62,562 nucleotides of DNA, taken from the UHGV virus genome UHGV-0106067; one strand, 5' to 3'. The DNA is from a virus. The notes beneath the pieces are model-generated. The model saw only the letters and a program-made list of their open reading frames with translations, was not told the DNA's origin and did not search any database. How positions within the stretch are numbered: position 1 is the stretch's first letter; each line of letters begins with the position of its first letter. This document shows positions 25,265 to 37,291 of the stretch, in pieces. The translations under genes were made by a program, and so were the position numbers.

Positions 25265-26002
25265 ATGAAAAATAATATAATGAAAAATGGAACTATCGAC
25301 AGCCAGGCTCTGTTGAAAATGGTGAATGAAGCGCGGAGACTGTGCGGTGAAAAAGAAGTACGCAACAACGACTTCATTGCACGCATCAAAGATGAACTTG
25401 AGGGGGAGGGTTACGAAAATTTCGTAACCCCCATGGATAAGAAAAAAGGTGGTGCGGATCAGGTTGTTATTGTGATGACCTATAAACAAGCGCTTCGGGT
25501 TGCCGCTCGTGAATCTAAATCCGTCCGTCGTTCGCTGGTCGATCAACTGGAGTCAATGCAACAGCAACTGCAACAAAAAACCACCACGAAACATTCGACT
25601 AACGGCCTTGAGGAATTCCGCAAAGCGCGGGCGCTGAAAATGACCGTCGATACAATGAAAGACCTTTTCGGATTCCTCCCCAACCTTGCCCCTGAAGCCA
25701 AACAGGTCGTTGCCGCCAGCCTGGTTAATCCCGTTGTAGGCGCTAACGTAATCCCGCTACCGATGATCAATGAACATTACTATTCGGCGTCAGAAGTTGG
25801 AGTGCAACTCAAAATATCCGCTAACAAGGTTGGTCGCATTGCCAATACCTACATGCTCAAAACAGAACAATACGGGAAATGGTTCATCGACAAATCCCCG
25901 CACTCGGATAAGCAGGTAGAAACCTTTCGCTATAATAATCGGGGAGTACAGAAGATCGAAGAAATCCTGGAGGCGGAGAACAACGCAGAGTTTGGAACAT
26001 GA
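25265..26002 (+). CDS. putative antirepressor-like DNA-binding protein
   Basis: 245-aa ORF at the end of the early-left operon next to the integration module. Confidence 0.35.
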   Translation: MKNNIMKNGTIDSQALLKMVNEARRLCGEKEVRNNDFIARIKDELEGEGYENFVTPMDKKKGGADQVVIVMTYKQALRVAARESKSVRRSLVDQLESMQQQLQQKTTTKHSTNGLEEFRKARALKMTVDTMKDLFGFLPNLAPEAKQVVAASLVNPVVGANVIPLPMINEHYYSASEVGVQLKISANKVGRIANTYMLKTEQYGKWFIDKSPHSDKQVETFRYNNRGVQKIEEILEAENNAEFGT

Positions 26003-26075
26003 CATCCCCGTCGTGAATGACGGGGGGGAGGCTTACTGTGTGTCGGAGTAGTATTTACGTGTTCAGAAAAGAGAT

Positions 26076-26750
26076 TCATATAGAGGCTGAATCTGATCTT
26101 TTTTGGTCACATCTGGCTTCCACCATTGCAGGCAGAGTGAAGGCGTAGACTAAAAACATTTCGGTAAAACTCAGTATCTGGCTTGCCTCAATTGGTGTGA
26201 ATACTTCATCTGTATGAACTGCTTTATTGGCATCTATTCGTACAATATGAGCCCATTCCTTCATCTGTTCAGTGATCAGGCCTTTTTTGTAAATCATCTG
26301 AATACGTTGCGACAGAGATTCTTTTCCTGCTTCATCGCCGAGCAGTTTTTTCGTTGAGATATCGAGGACTCTGCGACAAAGAATAACCACTGTGTCGTAC
26401 CGCCTCCTCTGTAAATCCTCTTTTGCCTCAACAAAAGTACGGTCTGCAACCGGGGGCGTATATTCTGGTGCGGTAATTTTTTTGACCGCAGGATAGATCT
26501 TGCGGAAACGGTACTGGCTATTTCCTGAAATCAGAATATCAAGGTCTTTTTTCTGGCTTTCCGCCATAGGGCCGTGATAGTGGTCTGATGGGATTTCAAC
26601 AATAGCAACACCTCCTTGATGACAACTTCTGCATACAAAAGCGACGTTAAAAAGAGGTGTTTTTTCAATTTGTTTTTCGGCAAATGCCTCAATAACAGCT
26701 CGCTCTTTTAAACAGTGCGGGCATGTAATGTCAAAGGAGACTAAACCCAT
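26076..26750 (-). CDS. zinc-ribbon + DUF4145 (HEPN-like) protein, candidate abortive-infection/defence effector
   Basis: N-terminal CPHC...CRSC; C-terminal SQRIQMIYKKGLITEQMKEWAHIVRIDANKAVH matches recalled DUF4145 signature (R-x2-GN-x-AAH); SD gagg 7 nt upstream of ATG at 26750. Confidence 0.5.
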   Translation of the reverse strand: MGLVSFDITCPHCLKERAVIEAFAEKQIEKTPLFNVAFVCRSCHQGGVAIVEIPSDHYHGPMAESQKKDLDILISGNSQYRFRKIYPAVKKITAPEYTPPVADRTFVEAKEDLQRRRYDTVVILCRRVLDISTKKLLGDEAGKESLSQRIQMIYKKGLITEQMKEWAHIVRIDANKAVHTDEVFTPIEASQILSFTEMFLVYAFTLPAMVEARCDQKRSDSASI

Positions 26751-27030
26751 GGATATTCCTCGCGAAATTAAAGAAATTAACGAAATCATTGAGGTTACTG
26801 ATCGCCCCGAGTTTACCCTCATGTGGCGCTATGAAACAGGAACCGACGAGCAAAAATACATCATGGTTGCAGCATTGGCTGTGATGGCGATAGAAAGGGA
26901 GCGGATGGAAAGGAACGTAATAGTTATTCCTGAGAGAAATGATTCACCGGATCTGAGATGGCAGGGGCCGGAGTGGATGTGGCAATCCGGTGATGATATT
27001 TCTTCTCTGGGGGAAGCGCCGCCAGAATGA
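26749..27030 (+). CDS. small acidic hypothetical protein, divergent from DUF4145 gene with overlapping start codons
   Basis: ATG at 26749 shares the palindromic CCATGG with minus-strand ATG at 26750; SD aaggag upstream; could be a shadow ORF. Confidence 0.25.
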   Translation: MDIPREIKEINEIIEVTDRPEFTLMWRYETGTDEQKYIMVAALAVMAIERERMERNVIVIPERNDSPDLRWQGPEWMWQSGDDISSLGEAPPE

Positions 27031-27277
27031 CGGCGCGGTAGTGAAGGTAATCAAACATTTATGGCCTGAATCCCGTTTTTTTCAATAACGGAAAGAAGCG
27101 CGCCGCGCCGGGCGGAAACAGAAACGATGGGAGGGTGCATGTAAGGCGTTGCAAGAACTGAATAAATACCGTGACTTGATCAACGAATTGTCAGAGTGAG
27201 CGAAGCGGGAATCCACGTCCTTTAGGGCGTGGATGATATCAGGCTGTTGAAATACATGTAGAAAAGGAGCGCATACT

Positions 27278-27445
27278 ATGACCGAAAAAGAGGTTTCTGA
27301 TTTGTTACAAAAAAGGCGCACAGCTTTGTATAATTTGCGAAAAAAACACGGATTCCCGGAACCAGTACTTACTCATCCGGCGCGATATAGTCGTCAGGCC
27401 GTTGAACAATGGCTTAAAGCCGGAGGAATTAACCGAGCTGTTTAG
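27278..27445 (+). CDS. AlpA-family excisionase / DNA-binding regulator
   Basis: 55-aa ORF MTEKEVSDLLQKRRTALYNLRKKHGFPEPVLTHPARYSRQAVEQWLKAGG with SD aaaggag; not in ORF track (<60 aa); convergent with integrase, overlapping its 3-prime end by 17 bp. Confidence 0.55.
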   Translation: MTEKEVSDLLQKRRTALYNLRKKHGFPEPVLTHPARYSRQAVEQWLKAGGINRAV

Positions 27446-28673
27446 CGTGCCAGAAAATTTTATCAGCATACAACTCATACGCATCTTTCTGTTCCGACAA
27501 CCAGTCGTGTTTATTATACACGGCCATAACTCCCCCAAGTTCATGCCCCAGCATTTTTTCAGTGACGTGGGGCATAATTCCTTCCCCAGATAAATTCGTT
27601 ACCAGAGAACGCCTAAAATCATGCGTTCTCCATTCAGGAATATCAATTTTCTCCCTTAACTTTTTCATGTACAAATTAGCCGACGAACGATCAATAGGTT
27701 TATCTATTTCCTGCCCGGGGAATAGCACATCAAAACCCGCATTAAGCAATCTCTCGATATAAGGTTTAACCTGAGTGAATACCGGACGCCGGATAATATT
27801 CCCCATTTTTGAATGCTCTTTTGGGGTTGTCCAGACCAGATCTTCCATGTTGAACTCACTGGCTGTCGCGAGACGTAGCTCAGAAAGTCTGGCCCCCCAT
27901 AGCAATAGCAATTGATGTAACACCTTGTTGGAAGTAACTACTTTTGAGTTCTCCAGCGCCAGCCAAATTTTTGCCAGTTCCGTATAGGTAAGTACACGAC
28001 TCCCTACATCTGGTTTTTTCCCAATATTCTTAACACTAAGCTTGAGTAATTCGCATGATGGGATTAACTGGCGGCTGATACACCAGTTAATAACTGAACG
28101 CAGTTGTAACAACAAAACACGAGCCTTTTTCTTGTTGAGGCTTTCTTGTTTGTCAAAGAAACGAGCCCATGCCGATACTGGGATACTGGCAACTGGCGAG
28201 CCTTCAAACTGTGTGTACATAGTGTTGTACACGACGGATCTGTAAAGCGTCTGTGTATTGGGTTTCAGATCAGTAACATACTTATCCCACCACTGATCCA
28301 GGCATTCTTTTAATGTCAGTTCGCCGTCACTGGGCGCAAAATAATTTTTAGGGTTAACTCCCTTCATGTACAATGCGCGCATCTCACCGACGATAACACG
28401 CGCGTCCTTCAGTGAAGTAGACGGATAGCGCCCGACAGTAAGACGTACTGGCTTACCATTCCAGCGATAACGGTACTGAAACGTGATAGTTCCTGCTGGA
28501 GTAATCCGCACACTTAACCCGTCACCATCGGTGATTTCAGCAGGGCCAGAGTAGGGTTTTCCGTAGAGGCCTCGTAGTTTGGTGTCGCTCAGTGCCAATG
28601 CTTTATATCCTGTACACAAGTTTATAATGTATTCTGTACTCAATATGTACGCATTAGCAAGTGAACAAAACAC
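27429..28673 (-). CDS. int: tyrosine recombinase / phage integrase (P4-like family)
   Basis: 414 aa; C-terminal catalytic region with HDFRRS...GH...Y arrangement; true start uncertain. Confidence 0.8.
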   Translation of the reverse strand: MFCSLANAYILSTEYIINLCTGYKALALSDTKLRGLYGKPYSGPAEITDGDGLSVRITPAGTITFQYRYRWNGKPVRLTVGRYPSTSLKDARVIVGEMRALYMKGVNPKNYFAPSDGELTLKECLDQWWDKYVTDLKPNTQTLYRSVVYNTMYTQFEGSPVASIPVSAWARFFDKQESLNKKKARVLLLQLRSVINWCISRQLIPSCELLKLSVKNIGKKPDVGSRVLTYTELAKIWLALENSKVVTSNKVLHQLLLLWGARLSELRLATASEFNMEDLVWTTPKEHSKMGNIIRRPVFTQVKPYIERLLNAGFDVLFPGQEIDKPIDRSSANLYMKKLREKIDIPEWRTHDFRRSLVTNLSGEGIMPHVTEKMLGHELGGVMAVYNKHDWLSEQKDAYELYADKIFWHAKQLG

Positions 28674-28939: not shown

Positions 28940-31900
28940 TTACTCCACTCCCACTTTTTTGTTGTACTCGCGGTTAAACCGATCCACGGCAATTTTCATA
29001 TCCCGCTCAACCGATTTCACCATCGCCGACTGTTGCGCCAGACTGAGAGTACTGTCGGCGTAAATGGCATCACGCTGTTTACGCAAATCCTTCAGTCTCT
29101 TCCGGGTATCCTGCATAAGCCCGTTCATCAACAATTTTCCGTTGTTCTCGTCAATGAACGCCGTTCTTTCTGCACCGGTCAGACTCTTCAGCTCTGCGTG
29201 ATACTGCGCAACCTCTGTCATCCGGTCGTACATCTTCTGCTGGTCTGCATACGGCATCACCTCACCCGAAATTTTCCCCAGGAAGGGCACCTGCTGCTCC
29301 GGTATATCAATACCGTTCAGCGATTTCACCGCCGCATCTGTGGTTTTGGAAATGAAGCGCCCTGTCCCTCCGGAGATATAGTCAATCCAGAATTTCAGCG
29401 ATTCCGGTGTGATATCCACCGCGCCGGGACGATACTGGCTGCCACCTGAGAACGCATTCAGCCAGGATGCAAACGCCTTGTACGCCTCAGGCGTTGAACG
29501 TCTGCCCAGCTGGCTGTCCGGTTTCGGTGTGCCAAATGGCATGTTCTCCTGGTAAATCTGCGCCCCCATGAAGTTTTCATTCATGGCAAGGTTCGCAAAC
29601 GGACGCAGAATGGTCGGCGCTGCATTTTTCAGCAATGCCCCGGACAGTGTTTCCGACGTTTCACTGCCCACAGGACTGAATGCCCCCAGGATACCACCGA
29701 CAACATTACCGGCAGCACGTGAAGCAGTCAGGTCGCCCGCTGCCACACCTTCAGCAGTATGCCCGAGCAGGAAGAAAACGTTGTACCCGTAAGGCAGAGG
29801 AATACTCCAGTACTCTCCGGCCTTGCCCCCGAACACCGATTTCATAATGACGAGGTTACGCTCTTTCACATGAGACGGCACCTTGTCATACCAGTTAACC
29901 CCGTCATCATCCTCCCCCGCAACACTGCGGTTAAGCGAGCCAAGCAGATAACCCGCTCCCACAGCTGCAAGCGCGATTTTCTGCGGTACATTGAGATTCT
30001 TCCAGCGAAGGCGCTCCGGTAACGGCCCGTCGCCATTAAGATGTCCGAGCGTTCTCACCAGGTTTGCGGTCCCCTGAATGCTGGCGTTGGCAAACATATA
30101 CAGCGAGTTCATCAGCGCTCCCTGCTCACCACGACGGTTAAAGTTCACCGTCATGTTTTTGGCAAGAGATGCCGCCTGCTGGCGTGACAAACCGGCATCA
30201 CGGGCGTGTTTATAGGCAGAAAGACGCAGAGCGTTTTCAACCGCGCCGTTGGCATCCTCGACCAGGTTCAGGAACGAATGCCATGCACCGATACTCTGGC
30301 CTTTCCATCCTCCCTTCGCCAGCGATACAAGGCGATCCATTTCCTTCTGCTGGCCTTCAAGGTCACCCATGTTAAACCAGCCGGTTTTACCTCCATCCTC
30401 AACAAACTCTTTCCACACCTTCTGCCACTGCGCACCGTTGCCCGTGAGGGTTTTACCACGCAGACTGGCGTATACGGCAGACATGGCAGACCGGCTGTCT
30501 TTCACCACAGCCAGGGCGGATAAGTTATCCAGCCCTTTCAGTTTACCGTCGCTCCTTCCCTGCTCAGCCTTCAGGTTCATCACCGCCGTCTGCACGTCAC
30601 GGATGAAGTTACTGACCAGAAATTCCGGGTTATACGACGTGTTCACCGTTGCCAGGAAACGGTTAACTTTCCCCAGCGTACGGATTACGGCGTTACTGGT
30701 TTCCGGCCCCATGTTCTTCATCGCACGCATCAGGCGCGGGTCATGGAGTTTGATGTAGTAAGTTTTGCCGTCCTTTTTGGTGGTGAAGTAGCGATCCGCC
30801 ATCATTGCCATAGGCACCGGACGTTCAACAACTTCGCGACGGGTTTCGCCGGTTTCCGGATCAACACGCTCTGCAATCGCCCGCATGGTGTCCGGTTTGT
30901 CATCAGTGAATACCTGCCAGTAATCCTTATCGGGATTATCCTGCACCAGTTTCAGGAAGGCGTTACCCACTTCGTTTTTGCGATTGCGGATCAGCGATTC
31001 GCTCAAATCCTGTATCGCCTGAGTGGAAGGAGACTGTGCGCGGGATGCACGCCCCATGGCCTGCCTGCTTTCACGTCCGCCGATGGTGAAGCCCTTACCT
31101 GCACGGGGCAGTGACACCACACCGTCAACATCCTGACCTTTCAGGGGAACGTAGTAACGGTAGGCGTTCTGCCAGGCATCCACCACACCGCTCTCTTCCA
31201 GTCCGGCCTCACGGATAAGCTCACGGCGACGGGCCAGCATATCGTCAACAATCCCTGCCAGACGGTCATACTGTGCCTGTTTGCCACTGTTACGCACACG
31301 CTGCATGATTTCCGCCGCTTCCGCGTTGGTCATCCCCGAACCGCCGTCCGGCATTTTCGGGTTGATTTTCGCGATATGCGCGTTACGTTCCGGCGCGTGA
31401 CGGGCGTAGAGGTACTCATCCAGATCGGCCTGCGCAATTTTGTAGTCCGCCAGTAATTTAGCCAGTGGCTGAACGTAGCGCTCCTTCATCACGTTCAGGT
31501 CGTTTTCCGCCTTCCCGTGGAAGAGTTCTTCAGCCATATAGGCGTTATTGCTGTCATCTATTTTTCCGCCAGTTTTACGGATATTCTCCTGCACCGCCTT
31601 CAGCACCTGGAATTTATCCTGCATCTGGCGAACAAAACGGGATGCAATTGTCTCTTCCGGTGTCAGACTGCTGGTACGGGAGTAATACGGCCCCTTGCGA
31701 ATATCTTCAGGATAGAGTATTTTATCTACAGAGCCGCGATAAGAATGTTCCCCTTTGGGCAATTGAAGCCCTCTGTGCAGAAGGTTATCGCGGCTTAATT
31801 TTTTCTTCCGGTAAAGCGTTAATCCGGCTTTATCCAGACTATTTGCCTTATTCATTCCTCCTTCCGTACCGTAAACCGAAGCTACCTTGTTGATTTCCAG

Positions 31901-34900
31901 GCGCGACCGGACAGCCTTCATGTGTACCGCTGACACTACAGGATCACCATTTTTATCCATGGCATCAAGCAGCATCACAACCGCATTTCTTTCTGTCGCG
32001 GAACGGTAAATTGCATCCGGATCGTGCATCAGTTCCGGTAGTCTCTCGATAACATCCATCGGCACCACATGTTTCACTCCATTGGTGGCCTTACGCACAG
32101 TGTCGCGGGAGATAACCAGCGGCAAATCTGGTGCGCCAAGGTGACGCAATACCGGCGGCGTACGCCCGATGTTTACCGTTAAATCTGTGGTGCGCAGAGA
32201 CTTCATCATTCTGGCAAGGTCATCACGATAACGCTCGCCCTCACCTTCCGGCACTTTGAACGGATCAGTCTTACCGCTACGGGAGTACTGAGACGATGCG
32301 CCAGCGCCATCCTCACGCGGCGTGTAACCTTCCCGCACACGCTGGCCTAACGTGCGAATAGTTTCGCGAACAAGTCTGATATCGTTCAGCTCTGTCGGCT
32401 TCAGTAACCCCGTGCGACGCAGTACCCCTTTGACCAGGGCAACAACACGCTCCCACGCCGCCACAAATTTATTCGGCTGTTTCTCCGCCATATGTGCCAG
32501 AAATTCACCTGCCTGCACTTCCGGTGATTCCTTAGCATAAGACGCATCAACCTTACGCCAGGCTTCACGGATGGTGGCGTTATCACTGTCACGGGTTTTC
32601 AGCACGGTCTTAATAATCGTCTGATATTCCGCTGGCGTGACTACATGCTCCATTGCATGGTGAATAATCTCGTGACGTAACTTCTCGCGAACGGTCCGCC
32701 CATCAGGGATGTTATCCGCCACCAGGACAATTTCACGTTTATCCGGACGATAGAACGCGTGCACCTTGCCGTAACCGTCGAATGATTCACCCGCCAGTGC
32801 TTCAGCCTCTTTCTGTGACTTCACCACGCGGACCTTCAGGTCACTGTCCTTAATGCCACTAATCACGCCACGGGCAACAGCTTCAACCTGCGGGACCGGA
32901 CTGCCTTTGGCTTCCGCACTACGGTTAACATCCGAAATCAGATTGCCTTCAGGTGTGCGGGTCACGCCCTTACGGGAATAAAACGCAACTCCCTTGTCCG
33001 TCTCACGGGTTTTCAGTGTTCGGAACAAGTGATCGAATGCCTCACGAATACCGCCATCCAGTTCTGCATTCGTCGGATAAGCGTAGGTGTCCGGCTGTCC
33101 ATGGTCATCCGCCTTACGGATATTGACCAGATAATCATTCTCCACGCCAGCCATACGCGCTTTATCCTGAACATAACGCTCAAAGGCTCGCGCCGCCATT
33201 TCAACATCCGTTGACCAGTACGGTTTTGAACGAACGCCATCCAGGCGTTCAGAACGACGCAACATGTCACTGCTGTTAATGGCTTTCATCACGCCTTTAA
33301 ACGCGTCGTAAACCTCCTGACGTACCGGATATTCCGCATCAACATACCTGCCGTCTTTAAATACGCGCCCGGCACGCTGTGCTTCCGTCATATAGTCGCC
33401 ACCTGACGTGATCTTCCCGTCAGTGGAAACATCATAACGACCAAAATAATTATCCAGTGAATGGAACCATTCGTGGGCCAGCGCCCCCGGTCCGTTACCT
33501 TTTGTCAGGTTGATTGCCACCTCACCCGGCTCATAGTGTGCCGCCGCCTTACCCTTACCACGGGCACCAAAAGCAAGCCCAAGACGACCGTTCAGAGAAA
33601 GCGCTTTTGTCGGCACGTTCAGCACGTCAGCCAGGTCATGCAGCGAGTCATAAGCCCGGTTCAAATCAGCCTGACGACGCGGACTTTCCACATAATTACC
33701 AAACTGCACACCACAAAAACCAAACGCATCACTGAACTGCTCCGGCGAAACATCCCCCTTGCGGCGTTCTGGTCCGGTACGATCGCGGTTGGTGGCGTTA
33801 CGCTGCTCCTCACGCGAGACTTCACGCAGCGCCTTCACCTGATTAACCAGCTCATCACGATGTGTGCGCACATAATCATGTGCATCACGGGCAGACTCAA
33901 AACCGCCCTTCAGTTTCTGCCTGTTTTTGCCATAACCGATAAAAATGTCGCCACTGGCCTTATGCCGGTACACGTCAAAGGTTATTCTGTCATCAGCAGA
34001 GGTTGCTGGCGTTTCCCTTTCTCTGGAGCCTTGTTCATCGAAATATGCTTTCGCCTTTTTCAGTAACTCATCCCGGCTTTCCGAGAAAAAGAGGTCGCGC
34101 CCCTTGCTATCACGAAGCGAATACATCATTTGCGGCGGATCGTAACGTTTTCCCCCGACAAACGAATAAACACCGGACCTGACACGATAGCCGGATGCTT
34201 TATCAATCTGCAATGCAGAAAGCGTACGGAGCAGTTTCCAGGTATCCGACATGCTCCGTAACCCCGGCTTACTGTCCATCATATCAGCCAGTTTCGCTGC
34301 CGGAATTTTCCCCTCCAGCATACCGGCAGTAGCTTCGCGACCGCTTTTAACAATGCTGATCCATTTCTGCATGTTACGGCTTGTTCTGGTGGGAATTTCA
34401 CTGCGATACAACGCCATCATTGCCAGCGTGTCACTATCCACACCTTCTTTTTCCAGACGGGCATAATCCGGCTTTGGAAACAGTTTGCTCAGTGGTTGTG
34501 TCGCGTACTCCCCATCCTCCAGCGTTTTACCCATAGCTTCAGCAAGCTGCGCATAACGGTGTTTTGCCGCGCCCTTAATCTCCTCGCCAAAGTCTTCAAT
34601 TTTCGCACCACGCGCCTGCTGGTGAGTGCTCGGTTTATCTACCGGCACCGGCACCTCAGTATCCGGAACATCGGTTATGGTCTGGCGATTATCCCCGGTC
34701 TGTCTGCGCGCTTCTGCCTGCTGTGCCAGTTCCGGAAGGGAGTCACGAACCATACGAGGGAGTGATTCAGGCTGTGGCATATCAACCCCACGCTGACTTT
34801 CAGGTGCAGGAAGTCCTTCACGCATTGGTGCTGTGGCGTTCTGCTCATCCGGTGACGGCAGACCACGACGAACTGTTTCGCCCTCCAGTATTTCCCCCTG

Positions 34901-37291
34901 GCGACCAGCGGCATTTTCCGGTGCCTGCGCACGTCCTTTCTGGAAACTCTGGCCCTTCACCTCACCGGTTGTGGTAAAACGACCACCACGTCCGGCCTGA
35001 TTTTCATCCGGCGTACGCGCTACTTCTCCTGGTAACGGATATCCCTGTCCGGGATGAATATCGCCGGGAGCGGGAAGGCGTGGACGCTCAGTTAACTCCT
35101 GTGCTGTCGGACCGGCATCACCTTCAGCCATCTGGGAACGCACCAGTTCTTCCGCCGTCGGCGCGTTGCCACGGGCAAGACGGGCCTGCACTTCTGTATC
35201 ATCCCCCGTAAAACCACGGAATCGCGGGTCACGCATGAACGCGGGCTGTTCCATCGGATCAGCATCAGTAATACGCTCTCCGTCAGCCAGAGTGTTAATG
35301 GTCTCCGTTGCCACATCTTCAGAGAACGCAGGATTATCCATTTCAACGGCATACTGATTCTCGCCTTTCTTCACTACGGACGGTTTCAGGCCGGTGGCGC
35401 TGGCATTGCGGAAAACGTCGCTCCCCAGAGCACTTTTTTCATCCGTGAAATAACGGTTGTCCGGACGCACCTTTTCAATGCGTTCTGCTGGTCTGGACGC
35501 ACCACTCCCGTTAATTTCAATACGAACTTCATCCGGATCGCGGAACCGCACCGTCGGGTAAATACTCCCGTCGCCATCATCCGCATTTTCCGGCTGTGGC
35601 TGTGCCTCCGGTCTGGCCTCCTGCTGAGGGCGAAGCACATCACGGATAGCCTGTAACTGCTGCTCTTCAGTATCAGTACGCCCTTCCTTCAGGCTGAGTT
35701 TTCGGTATTCCTCAAGCAGTTCAGGGCGCGGCTTCGCCTTCAGCTCATCCATCACCGCCTGTCGCTTCGCCTGTTCATCCAGTTCATTTAACAGCTGGCT
35801 GGCGGCTTCCCGGCGATGAACGGCAGACGTGTCTCCCTCAGGTGCCATATCCGCATCAGCATACTGTTCCAGAAGTTGCTCGCGATTCATGCCCTGCATG
35901 GATTCGCGATGCTGTGCCACCGGATCAGCCGGTTCGGGTTGCGGGGCTGCTTCACCCTGCTGTACGACTTCAGCCTCACGCATGGCGGTTTCTTCTGCGG
36001 CCTGACGTTTTCCACGATATCCGGCAACCGCACCGAACGGTGCGCCCATCGCTGCACCAAGAGCGGCTCCTTCGATCGTTGCGTCAGCTACCCCCTCCCA
36101 TGGTGATACATCCATTCCGGCAGTCTCACGCAACGTCATATTTTCCTGGTAACGCGAATAGCCGCCCTGCGCCGCATTAATCGTCCCCTGTTCCGTGGCA
36201 TTTCTGACAATGCCGCTTTTAACGGTCTTCGCCGTGCCCCGCATCGCCAGATTAAACAACTGAGCATCGCCCAGTTTTGCCGCCATGGCATTCACAGCCA
36301 GCAATTCAGGATCGGTTGCCAGCTGCGCGCGCACCTCATCGGCAACACGCTCTTTTGCCAGATCCATTTTCTGGCGATCAGTAAGCTGTGCGTGCTGCGG
36401 ATCTGCATCAATTGACAAAAACGTCTGCTGAAATTTCGGGGACTTCGCCAGCTCAGAGTAATCCGCGTTAAGAACAGAGTCTGCTGCTGCCATTGCACTC
36501 TGCCCCTGTGCGCTGGCTGAGGAATGGGTGATCAGGCCTGCCTGGAATAAATCCGGCATTTTTTTATCGACAGCTTCTGCTGCCAGTGCGGTAGCTCTTT
36601 CCGGCTGCATCCCTGCCGCAATGTATTTTTTCTCCAGCCCGGCGGTCAGCACTTTTCGCAGAGTGACTTCACCCAGCTTTTTAGTCACACCGCCTGCAAC
36701 CATATCAGGTACAAGGGCACCAATCAGGTTTACGCCCTTCGCCACCCAGACCGCAGAATCATCATAGCCTTCAGTCATCGGTGTATTCAGCGCCCGCTGC
36801 GCCCCCGGCGACATCTTGCCAGTCAGCCATTCATCCGAGGCTTTAGCGCCGCCACTGACTGCCTTGCCTGTGACCTTCAGACCTTTACCGACAGTATCAG
36901 TAACCGCATTTTTTCCATCAGGCAGAGTGTCGATGACCTCATCCGCCCCCTTGCTGCCACCGACAAAAATATCCTGAACAGTTGCGACTCCCGGCAGCCC
37001 CATACGGCTGAACTCATTTAAAATACGCGCCCCTGTTTTTACCGGGCTCTGAATCATCGCATCACCGAGTCCACGGGCCATTTCCCCTGCCCCCCGGACA
37101 GACTGGGCGACACCTTTCCCCATCGTTGGTAATACATCACTCAGGCTGAACGATGTGCTGTGATCAACAGCGTTCTCCGGGTTGTTGAAAAAATCCTGCC
37201 AGTAATTTTCGCCCGGCTGCTTAATGTTCAGGCTGCTGCGGTTCCGGTTACCCAATTGTGCTTCAGGGCGCTGTTCATCTGAATAAGCCAT
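28940..37291 (-). CDS. giant polyvalent virion/ejection protein (2783 aa) with two HExxH zincin-like motifs
   Basis: single uninterrupted ORF; ALAHEWFHSLDNYFGRY and LRHEIIHHAMEH motifs; Pro/Glu-rich low-complexity linker; last and largest gene of the structural block. Confidence 0.65.
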   Translation of the reverse strand: MAYSDEQRPEAQLGNRNRSSLNIKQPGENYWQDFFNNPENAVDHSTSFSLSDVLPTMGKGVAQSVRGAGEMARGLGDAMIQSPVKTGARILNEFSRMGLPGVATVQDIFVGGSKGADEVIDTLPDGKNAVTDTVGKGLKVTGKAVSGGAKASDEWLTGKMSPGAQRALNTPMTEGYDDSAVWVAKGVNLIGALVPDMVAGGVTKKLGEVTLRKVLTAGLEKKYIAAGMQPERATALAAEAVDKKMPDLFQAGLITHSSASAQGQSAMAAADSVLNADYSELAKSPKFQQTFLSIDADPQHAQLTDRQKMDLAKERVADEVRAQLATDPELLAVNAMAAKLGDAQLFNLAMRGTAKTVKSGIVRNATEQGTINAAQGGYSRYQENMTLRETAGMDVSPWEGVADATIEGAALGAAMGAPFGAVAGYRGKRQAAEETAMREAEVVQQGEAAPQPEPADPVAQHRESMQGMNREQLLEQYADADMAPEGDTSAVHRREAASQLLNELDEQAKRQAVMDELKAKPRPELLEEYRKLSLKEGRTDTEEQQLQAIRDVLRPQQEARPEAQPQPENADDGDGSIYPTVRFRDPDEVRIEINGSGASRPAERIEKVRPDNRYFTDEKSALGSDVFRNASATGLKPSVVKKGENQYAVEMDNPAFSEDVATETINTLADGERITDADPMEQPAFMRDPRFRGFTGDDTEVQARLARGNAPTAEELVRSQMAEGDAGPTAQELTERPRLPAPGDIHPGQGYPLPGEVARTPDENQAGRGGRFTTTGEVKGQSFQKGRAQAPENAAGRQGEILEGETVRRGLPSPDEQNATAPMREGLPAPESQRGVDMPQPESLPRMVRDSLPELAQQAEARRQTGDNRQTITDVPDTEVPVPVDKPSTHQQARGAKIEDFGEEIKGAAKHRYAQLAEAMGKTLEDGEYATQPLSKLFPKPDYARLEKEGVDSDTLAMMALYRSEIPTRTSRNMQKWISIVKSGREATAGMLEGKIPAAKLADMMDSKPGLRSMSDTWKLLRTLSALQIDKASGYRVRSGVYSFVGGKRYDPPQMMYSLRDSKGRDLFFSESRDELLKKAKAYFDEQGSRERETPATSADDRITFDVYRHKASGDIFIGYGKNRQKLKGGFESARDAHDYVRTHRDELVNQVKALREVSREEQRNATNRDRTGPERRKGDVSPEQFSDAFGFCGVQFGNYVESPRRQADLNRAYDSLHDLADVLNVPTKALSLNGRLGLAFGARGKGKAAAHYEPGEVAINLTKGNGPGALAHEWFHSLDNYFGRYDVSTDGKITSGGDYMTEAQRAGRVFKDGRYVDAEYPVRQEVYDAFKGVMKAINSSDMLRRSERLDGVRSKPYWSTDVEMAARAFERYVQDKARMAGVENDYLVNIRKADDHGQPDTYAYPTNAELDGGIREAFDHLFRTLKTRETDKGVAFYSRKGVTRTPEGNLISDVNRSAEAKGSPVPQVEAVARGVISGIKDSDLKVRVVKSQKEAEALAGESFDGYGKVHAFYRPDKREIVLVADNIPDGRTVREKLRHEIIHHAMEHVVTPAEYQTIIKTVLKTRDSDNATIREAWRKVDASYAKESPEVQAGEFLAHMAEKQPNKFVAAWERVVALVKGVLRRTGLLKPTELNDIRLVRETIRTLGQRVREGYTPREDGAGASSQYSRSGKTDPFKVPEGEGERYRDDLARMMKSLRTTDLTVNIGRTPPVLRHLGAPDLPLVISRDTVRKATNGVKHVVPMDVIERLPELMHDPDAIYRSATERNAVVMLLDAMDKNGDPVVSAVHMKAVRSRLEINKVASVYGTEGGMNKANSLDKAGLTLYRKKKLSRDNLLHRGLQLPKGEHSYRGSVDKILYPEDIRKGPYYSRTSSLTPEETIASRFVRQMQDKFQVLKAVQENIRKTGGKIDDSNNAYMAEELFHGKAENDLNVMKERYVQPLAKLLADYKIAQADLDEYLYARHAPERNAHIAKINPKMPDGGSGMTNAEAAEIMQRVRNSGKQAQYDRLAGIVDDMLARRRELIREAGLEESGVVDAWQNAYRYYVPLKGQDVDGVVSLPRAGKGFTIGGRESRQAMGRASRAQSPSTQAIQDLSESLIRNRKNEVGNAFLKLVQDNPDKDYWQVFTDDKPDTMRAIAERVDPETGETRREVVERPVPMAMMADRYFTTKKDGKTYYIKLHDPRLMRAMKNMGPETSNAVIRTLGKVNRFLATVNTSYNPEFLVSNFIRDVQTAVMNLKAEQGRSDGKLKGLDNLSALAVVKDSRSAMSAVYASLRGKTLTGNGAQWQKVWKEFVEDGGKTGWFNMGDLEGQQKEMDRLVSLAKGGWKGQSIGAWHSFLNLVEDANGAVENALRLSAYKHARDAGLSRQQAASLAKNMTVNFNRRGEQGALMNSLYMFANASIQGTANLVRTLGHLNGDGPLPERLRWKNLNVPQKIALAAVGAGYLLGSLNRSVAGEDDDGVNWYDKVPSHVKERNLVIMKSVFGGKAGEYWSIPLPYGYNVFFLLGHTAEGVAAGDLTASRAAGNVVGGILGAFSPVGSETSETLSGALLKNAAPTILRPFANLAMNENFMGAQIYQENMPFGTPKPDSQLGRRSTPEAYKAFASWLNAFSGGSQYRPGAVDITPESLKFWIDYISGGTGRFISKTTDAAVKSLNGIDIPEQQVPFLGKISGEVMPYADQQKMYDRMTEVAQYHAELKSLTGAERTAFIDENNGKLLMNGLMQDTRKRLKDLRKQRDAIYADSTLSLAQQSAMVKSVERDMKIAVDRFNREYNKKVGVE

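Follow-up and report, generated by a model that had tools for sequence, protein, structure and literature searches.

Among described phage-defence systems, the closest to the locus considered here is PD-T7-4, renamed RAZR (ring-activated zinc-finger RNase) by Zhang et al. (Nature 2026; PMC13017515; structure PDB 9y9c). RAZR joins a Cys4 zinc finger to a DUF4145/HEPN domain and is non-toxic alone, also when overproduced; it forms a 24-mer around ring proteins of the phage, either an Erf-like recombinase or the portal, and then cleaves single-stranded RNA (PMC13017515). The mutations R146A and H154A abolish defence, and the zinc-finger domain, the most variable region of the protein, determines specificity (PMC13017515). 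The combination of a zinc finger with a HEPN domain has itself been listed since 2013 (PMC3710099). Here we describe a ribonuclease (RNase) gene of this kind, together with a small divergent gene whose start codon overlaps its own, in the virus genome UHGV-0106067, a stretch of 62,562 nucleotides that we refer to as the window and that represents a 933W/Stx-like lambdoid prophage. The locus is a new, distant and prophage-borne variant of RAZR, whose domain combination and mechanism are already known. The reading that we prefer, to which we would assign a probability of roughly 0.55, is that the lysogen expresses a defence RNase and that its small partner, carried on the lytic transcript, gives the prophage immunity from it.

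The RNase gene (26076-26750, minus strand, stop codon at 26076-26078 included) encodes a protein of 224 residues with the N-terminus MGLVSFDITCPHC. An alternative reading of the same open reading frame (ORF), with an ATG at 26822 and 248 residues, is unlikely because all of the aligned homologues (37/37) begin at the MG/MA/MS position of the shorter form; a GAGGA Shine-Dalgarno sequence (26757-26761, minus strand), 6 nt upstream of the 224-residue start, also argues against it. The N-terminal zinc-ribbon domain (residues 1-58; 26577-26750), which is the presumed sensor, is the most variable part of the protein and carries two CxxC knuckles in its sequence, C10-C13 (26712-26723) and C40-C43 (26622-26633), the second of them reading CRSC. 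The HEPN (DUF4145) ribonuclease domain (residues 99-212; 26115-26456) is supported by a Pfam match (PF13643, HEPN clan; residues 118-197, E=3.4e-9, 37.1 bits against a cut-off of 23.1), by a helical bundle in the structural model and by fold search. Within it, the string VRIDANKAVH (residues 170-179) includes the predicted catalytic motif R171-I-D-A-N175-K-A-V-H179 (26214-26240). In an alignment of 38 homologues, which were 36-97% identical to the window protein in the search, C10, C13, C40, C43, R171, N175 and H179 are among the invariant residues. The R171-x7-H179 motif with its invariant N175 lies outside the canonical HEPN R-x4-6-H spacing and matches the essential R146 and H154 of RAZR.

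An AlphaFold2 model of the RNase (mean predicted local distance difference test score, pLDDT, 90.2; predicted template modelling score 0.81) consists of an N-terminal ribbon of four strands, a short middle element and, at the C-terminus, a domain with the alpha-helical HEPN fold, and HEPN structures were the top matches in both fold searches made with it. Its only stretch with a pLDDT below 50 is residues 173-178, the loop between R171 and H179, and the model could thus depict an active site that becomes ordered only upon assembly. The profile of the family also matches RPB9-type zinc ribbons, the same match that has been reported for RAZR. A preliminary description of this locus, drawn from the letters alone, had proposed a zinc-ribbon DUF4145 (HEPN-like) protein encoded opposite to the early operon, in the cargo slot next to the integrase gene (int). 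Everything that it stated about the sequence itself (the 224-residue protein, its motifs, the overlapping ATGs and both Shine-Dalgarno sequences) was verified by reading the sequence; the domain assignment is borne out by profile search, structure prediction with fold search, and the homology to RAZR described below, and the position and orientation of the gene are as proposed.

Evidence that the window protein is related to RAZR over its full length came from the comparison of profiles. With a narrow profile as the query, hhalign against four RAZR-family proteins gave a probability of only 46%. The query was widened by adding 129 full-length representatives from a hidden Markov model (HMM) search, and the target was an alignment of RAZR (residues 11-208) and its four relatives; with these, the probability was 98.2% (E=3.9e-14) over 172 columns that span both CxxC knuckles, the YP...P...P linker, the entire HEPN domain and the R-x3-N-x3-H motif. 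The window protein is therefore best regarded as a distant full-length homologue of RAZR (PD-T7-4) that forms a subfamily of its own. Both proteins have an N-terminal Cys4 zinc ribbon, a linker and a C-terminal DUF4145 HEPN domain within ~210-220 residues, both have the R-x3-N-x3-H catalytic spacing (the window motif aligns with RIVGNQAVH of PDB 9y9c), and in both the zinc-finger domain is the most variable. They differ in that their identity is only ~22%, and the window protein has an extra insert of ~30 residues that follows its second zinc knuckle and precedes the linker; unlike RAZR, it is embedded in a prophage and reverse-oriented. Furthermore, RAZR is a single-gene system, whereas the RNase clade of the window has a conserved head-to-head partner, albeit one that is dispensable and absent from a sister clade: of 98 loci collected from genomes and viral contigs, 68 had the small gene directly upstream of the RNase gene in a search with an HMM built from seven examples. 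The partner gene is absent from the four RAZR-family loci inspected.

The RNase family is large, with 3350 relatives at E<=1e-3 in an HMM search of 1.84 billion representatives, the majority of them full-length at ~210-230 residues. PHROG 1305 calls the family a 'DNA binding protein', a label that we could not trace to any experiment. We also considered whether the RNase corresponds to DS-38 of DefensePredictor and rejected this, as DS-38 (WP_001313577.1) is 1101 nt long, or ~366 residues, against 224 for the window protein; DS-38 is a HEPN and zinc-finger system from E. coli, validated there and reported to be distinct from PD-T7-4 (PMC13092281). Based on the homology to RAZR, the invariant catalytic residues and zinc ligands, the moron-like orientation, the presence of toxin-antitoxin modules nearby and the turnover of the sensor domain (the last three are taken up below), the sequence makes it quite likely that the RNase gene is a prophage anti-phage defence gene with RNase chemistry. 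By analogy, a RAZR-like trigger, that is, an oligomeric phage protein, is plausible, if somewhat short of probable.

The small gene (26749-27030, plus strand; PHROG 8371) encodes a protein of 93 residues that begins MDIPREIK. It is a real and conserved protein-coding gene: all 38 of its unique sequences are intact and carry the core motif (A/S)DRPEFTLMQRYE..QK....ALIGKLIEQDR, and the median ratio of nonsynonymous to synonymous substitution (dN/dS) is 0.26 among 63 unsaturated pairs. At its invariant amino acids, codon positions 1 and 2 have near-zero entropy and position 3 has 1.5-1.9 bits; the same codon-position analysis found no embedded conserved element past the first ~8 codons. Each of the small proteins tested (19/19) matches PHROG 8371, to which no function is assigned, the copy in the window with E=7.4e-48. 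A match of the small protein to the PADLOC CARF_HEPN model (E=0.035) was dismissed as noise. AlphaFold2 predicts a three-helix bundle (helices 3-16, 20-30 and 33-56, pLDDT >90), which coincides with the conserved core (residues 1-56; 26749-26916) and is followed by a variable, disordered tail.

The preliminary description had presented this gene as an acidic ORF of 93 residues starting within a CCATGG palindrome, and had made its case depend on the ORF being conserved. Conserved it is, and all of these features are present in the window; the length and the acidity, however, are peculiar to the window. One nucleotide is missing from a G run (26975-26976), and the tail is therefore out of frame with the 81-residue form found in other E. 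coli; the 93 residues and the acidity (isoelectric point, pI, 4.3) of the window copy result from this 1-nt deletion. Members of the family are usually 54-71 residues long (relatives 54-81), with a core of ~55 residues and a median pI of 6.6. Likewise, only the central CATG of the palindrome is conserved, and the full CCATGG is not kept.

The two start codons meet in the CCATGG at 26747-26752, with the plus-strand ATG at 26749-26751 and the minus-strand ATG at 26750-26748, an overlap of 2 nt. The CATG is kept wherever the small gene adjoins the RNase gene, the sole exception being one locus (L012) in which the position reads ATA, and the overlap persists across RNase alleles down to ~39% identity. 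Each of the 38 unique small-ORF sequences tabulated shows this CATG overlap, which is more than chance would give. Each ribosome-binding site lies within the coding sequence of the other gene: the GAGGA of the RNase gene falls in codons 3-5 of the small gene, whose own AAGGAG (26734-26739, plus strand), 9 nt before its ATG, falls in codons 4-6 of the RNase gene. A Shine-Dalgarno-like motif is found 6-11 nt upstream of the RNase gene at every locus with the small ORF; upstream of the small gene such a motif occurs in 25 of 32 unique contexts, and it is weaker or absent in the other 7. Divergent overlaps are very rare, accounting for 2 of 663 overlapping pairs in E. coli (PMC4161906). No account of the conserved head-to-head partner was found in the searchable literature.

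The pair is spread over more than 15 enterobacterial genera, whose members include Escherichia/Shigella, Klebsiella, Enterobacter, Cronobacter, Yersinia, Serratia, Proteus, Morganella, Tatumella, Rosenbergiella, Symbiopectobacterium, Photorhabdus and Xenorhabdus, among others. It occupies at least four prophage slots: beside int, as in the window; between the replication genes and the nin region; after an anti-repressor gene; and, in Klebsiella, between the lysis and terminase genes. Escherichia phage PhiR12_3 (PV340552.1; from ECOR13) is 99.9% identical to the window across the two-gene module. When positions 26000-27100 were compared with E. coli genomes by megablast, query positions 56-1047 aligned in loci with differing flanks. 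These delimit a shared cassette of 992 bp (26055-27046), ~96% identical at other prophage positions, and this block common to the E. coli contexts contains the RNase gene and the small gene and nothing else.

At nearly all loci, the neighbouring genes on both flanks are oriented like the small gene and against the RNase gene. Transcription of the operon would therefore cross the whole RNase gene in antisense before reaching the small gene. Upstream of the RNase gene, the window has only one promoter-like site (27262-27233, minus strand; TCTACA-18-TATCAT, extended TG); as this site is not part of the shared cassette, any promoter of the RNase gene would come from the local context. In other prophages, the cassette is found directly beside RelE/ParE-HigA modules (L001, 6043-6994; L002, 5988-6571; L003, 5995-6622; L110, 6052-6735), which are oriented like the RNase gene and from which it could be transcribed.

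In the model that we favour, the RNase would be made in the lysogen and, by analogy with RAZR, would be harmless alone. Its zinc ribbon would bind an oligomeric protein of an infecting phage, bringing HEPN domains together, and the assembled HEPN domains would cut RNA and thereby abort the infection. The small gene, for its part, would belong to the phage's own lytic transcription unit, and its mRNA and that of the RNase gene would be complementary over a stretch that includes both ribosome-binding sites. Upon induction, transcription of the operon would silence the RNase gene through collision and antisense RNA and would also yield the small protein, which may in addition neutralise RNase that is already present. 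The arrangement would amount to a self-immunity switch, as without it the ring-forming proteins of the prophage itself could trigger the defence. The geometry is the most telling indication: we infer the either-or expression of the two genes from their overlapping start codons and from the place of the small gene, which follows the antisense RNase gene within the lytic operon. This role of the partner, comprising mutually exclusive expression, lytic self-immunity and perhaps direct inhibition, is drawn largely by analogy and is put forward tentatively, although a regulatory or inhibitory link of some form between the two genes is the reading that we favour.

A direct inhibitory action of the small protein is suggested by analogy with two described cases, Dmd acting on RnlA/LsoA, and BstA/aba. 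RnlA and LsoA are HEPN RNases that are directly inhibited by the small phage protein Dmd (PDB 5hy3), but Dmd is encoded by the attacking phage and not by the element that bears the RNase; it has neither sequence nor fold similarity to the small protein, whose inhibitory action is a hypothesis. Prophage defence with cognate self-immunity has a precedent in BstA/aba (Owen et al., 2021; PMC8585504). There, as proposed here, an abortive-infection protein encoded by a prophage is combined with a cognate device, embedded in the same locus, by which the lytic cycle of that prophage is spared. BstA, however, does not belong to the HEPN proteins, and at the window locus self-immunity is something that we infer. 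Reportedly, aba is a DNA element within bstA and not a separate protein.

The locus places a distant branch of the RAZR family in temperate phages, Stx-type phages of E. coli and Shigella among them, with a sensor domain that is swapped between otherwise near-identical prophages. This poses the question of how a tailed prophage that builds its own portal ring tolerates a sensor of ring proteins, and a head-to-head partner oriented with the lytic operon is the obvious candidate for an answer. If the partner were an off-switch, this would account for a prophage that carries a sensor of phage rings and yet does not kill itself on induction; were it an inhibitor, it would be the first protein of the anti-RAZR type. 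The cassette would then also offer a compact case of expression control by overlapping divergent start codons, which are very rare in bacteria.

A number of observations weigh against the proposed defence and self-immunity pair. Direct similarity to RAZR is weak, whether the window protein is compared with the PADLOC model of PD-T7-4 (E=1.4e-3, 16 bits) or, by phmmer, with PDB 9y9c (E=1.6), or the narrow profile is compared with PDB 9y9c (E=0.11), and for this reason the mechanism may differ from that of RAZR. A consensus promoter scan of positions 25800-27500 found sites no more numerous than in shuffled sequence, a scan of 38 loci under relaxed criteria detected no sigma-70 site at a conserved position for either gene, and the synonymous sites of the small gene vary freely. 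Searches of Pfam and NCBIfam with the small protein returned no match, a Foldseek search of its model against the PDB returned nothing below E=3, and a tblastn search for a homologue in virulent phages returned none, matching only six temperate-phage records. Each gene is also found without the other. In three loci (L037, L039 and L040) the small gene is truncated or lost and the RNase retains its Cys4 and R-N-H residues, and in a sister clade of the RNase (N-termini MAMxS, 43-44% identical) the small gene is wholly absent; at the genome loci of this clade that were examined (L008 and L015), the RNase gene is instead head-to-head with terS. Conversely, the small gene occurs solo in ~255 index blocks of contigs and is frequent in this form in E. 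coli, where it has a new GTG start and the RNase gene has been replaced by unrelated DNA, as in phiSTEC1589-Stx1c.

Several of these points, together with the evolution of the two genes, bear on the alternative that survives best, which holds that the small gene is an ordinary backbone gene of unrelated function and that the junction is a compact insertion point for a reverse-oriented moron. The mean pairwise identity of the RNase is 0.51 in residues 1-58, 0.33 in residues 59-98 and 0.70 in the HEPN domain. Among prophages whose flanks and small gene are 91-93% identical in nucleotide sequence, the zinc-ribbon region has no detectable nucleotide similarity and the HEPN region is ~80% identical; the replaced segment comprises codons 18-98 of the RNase gene (compared among L059, L068, L073, L079, L047 and L050). 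In sequence terms this looks like replacement of the sensor domain as a cassette, and it parallels RAZR, in which the zinc-finger domain is likewise the most variable and sets the specificity. High identity extends across the small gene and continues for ~50 nt within the RNase gene, a stretch that includes the ribosome-binding site of the small gene, and the same allele of the small gene is found paired with unrelated zinc-ribbon domains. In related prophages, the small gene is ~92% identical, as are the flanks, with a synonymous divergence (pS) of 0.09-0.23, compared with 0.5-0.8 for the RNase gene, so that recombination separates the two at their junction. A small gene that diverges as fast as the backbone does and is parted by recombination from the RNase allele is also what would be expected of an unrelated neighbour, and this counts against the self-immunity reading as well. 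Divergence of the small protein correlates with that of the HEPN domain (Spearman 0.76) and not with that of the zinc ribbon (0.27); we considered co-evolution as evidence of an interaction and rejected it, since analyses of synonymous sites and by blastn attribute the pattern to backbone relatedness and strong constraint on HEPN.

The view of the small gene as a backbone gene draws further on its common solo form with a GTG start in E. coli, on the overlap by 4 nt of its stop codon with the next nin-region gene in Yersinia and Morganella, and on the lack of a functional annotation or fold match for its product. It does not readily account for a pair that moves jointly to the various prophage slots, for a 992-bp block that holds just these two genes, for the retention of the exact 2-nt overlap across such divergent RNase alleles, or for the finding that in all contexts examined outside E. 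coli the small gene adjoins the RNase gene. We consider it the most credible of the alternatives, though an unlikely one.

A more specific form of the proposed partnership would make the small protein a member of a new family of direct HEPN/RAZR inhibitors that is made only from the lytic transcript, with the overlap enforcing either-or expression by way of antisense RNA and colliding polymerases, and the solo copies being orphan anti-defence genes. In this strong form the proposal is doubtful.

The preliminary description had suggested that the pair might be a toxin and its regulator. As a classical toxin-antitoxin system, with a constitutively dangerous HEPN protein and the small protein as its obligate antitoxin or repressor, the locus would fit its surroundings, as the cassette is found among RelE/HigA modules and the two genes are tightly linked. 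The idea is unsupported, however, because the small gene is dispensable and sometimes stands alone: the three loci without an intact small gene keep the Cys4 and R-N-H residues, and an entire RNase clade does without it. In addition, the genes are divergent and do not form an operon, the related RAZR is non-toxic even when overproduced (PMC13017515), and the small protein has no MNT or helix-turn-helix signature. Neither the co-transcription of a type II system nor its requirement for the antitoxin wherever the toxin is intact is found here. From HEPN-MNT toxin-antitoxin systems of types II and VII (e.g. PDB 5yep and 7ae2), the window pair differs in having no MNT nucleotidyltransferase and no operon, and in a partner that can be dispensed with and has no sequence relationship to theirs. 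An obligate antitoxin is excluded by the data, and we regard a classical toxin-antitoxin system as improbable.

The data also argue against a required co-factor, and the remaining proposal, that the small protein is an adaptor or co-sensor in a two-gene defence system, is very improbable in spite of the strong co-occurrence and the conserved junction, given that the orientation assigns the small gene to the lytic operon and not to the lysogen-expressed moron, that simultaneous expression would be expected to interfere with itself at the overlapping 5' ends, that a large RNase clade has no small gene, that RAZR functions as a single gene, and that one small-gene allele pairs with unrelated zinc-ribbon domains.

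Some further features of the loci were noted. In a Morganella prophage (L117, 3207-3422), the gene that follows the small gene with a 4-nt overlap is a Lar-type restriction-alleviation gene, which has an anti-defence function. The solo small gene of phiSTEC1589-Stx1c (L109, 2182-3242) and of L111-L116 encodes 85 residues from its GTG start, beginning MNNKINIPLEIK..., and ~0.8 kb of unrelated DNA takes the place of the DUF4145 gene; this DNA holds a plus-strand ORF of 166 residues and, overlapping it, a minus-strand ORF of 96 residues with a good Shine-Dalgarno sequence, neither of which has a Pfam match.

In the window, the RNase gene is convergent with an anti-repressor-like gene (25265-26002), and between them lies a GC hairpin with a 7-bp stem (26006-26028; CCCCGTC-GTGAAT-GACGGGG), which is not a canonical terminator because a T-run is absent on both strands. 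A second GC hairpin (27016-27036; GCGCCG...CGGCGC) surrounds the stop codon of the small gene, is kept in the L002 copy of the cassette and has no T-run after it. An Rfam search of the module found no known RNA; between the small gene and the xis-like gene, a match to the HgcC family (27133-27255, plus strand) falls below the Rfam threshold (26 bits, where the gathering score is 50; E=0.0015) and is probably due to chance. Just past the integrase gene, an ORF of 2783 residues (28940-37291, minus strand) encodes a 'large polyvalent protein' with LPD38, LPD5, LPD1 and MuF_C domains.

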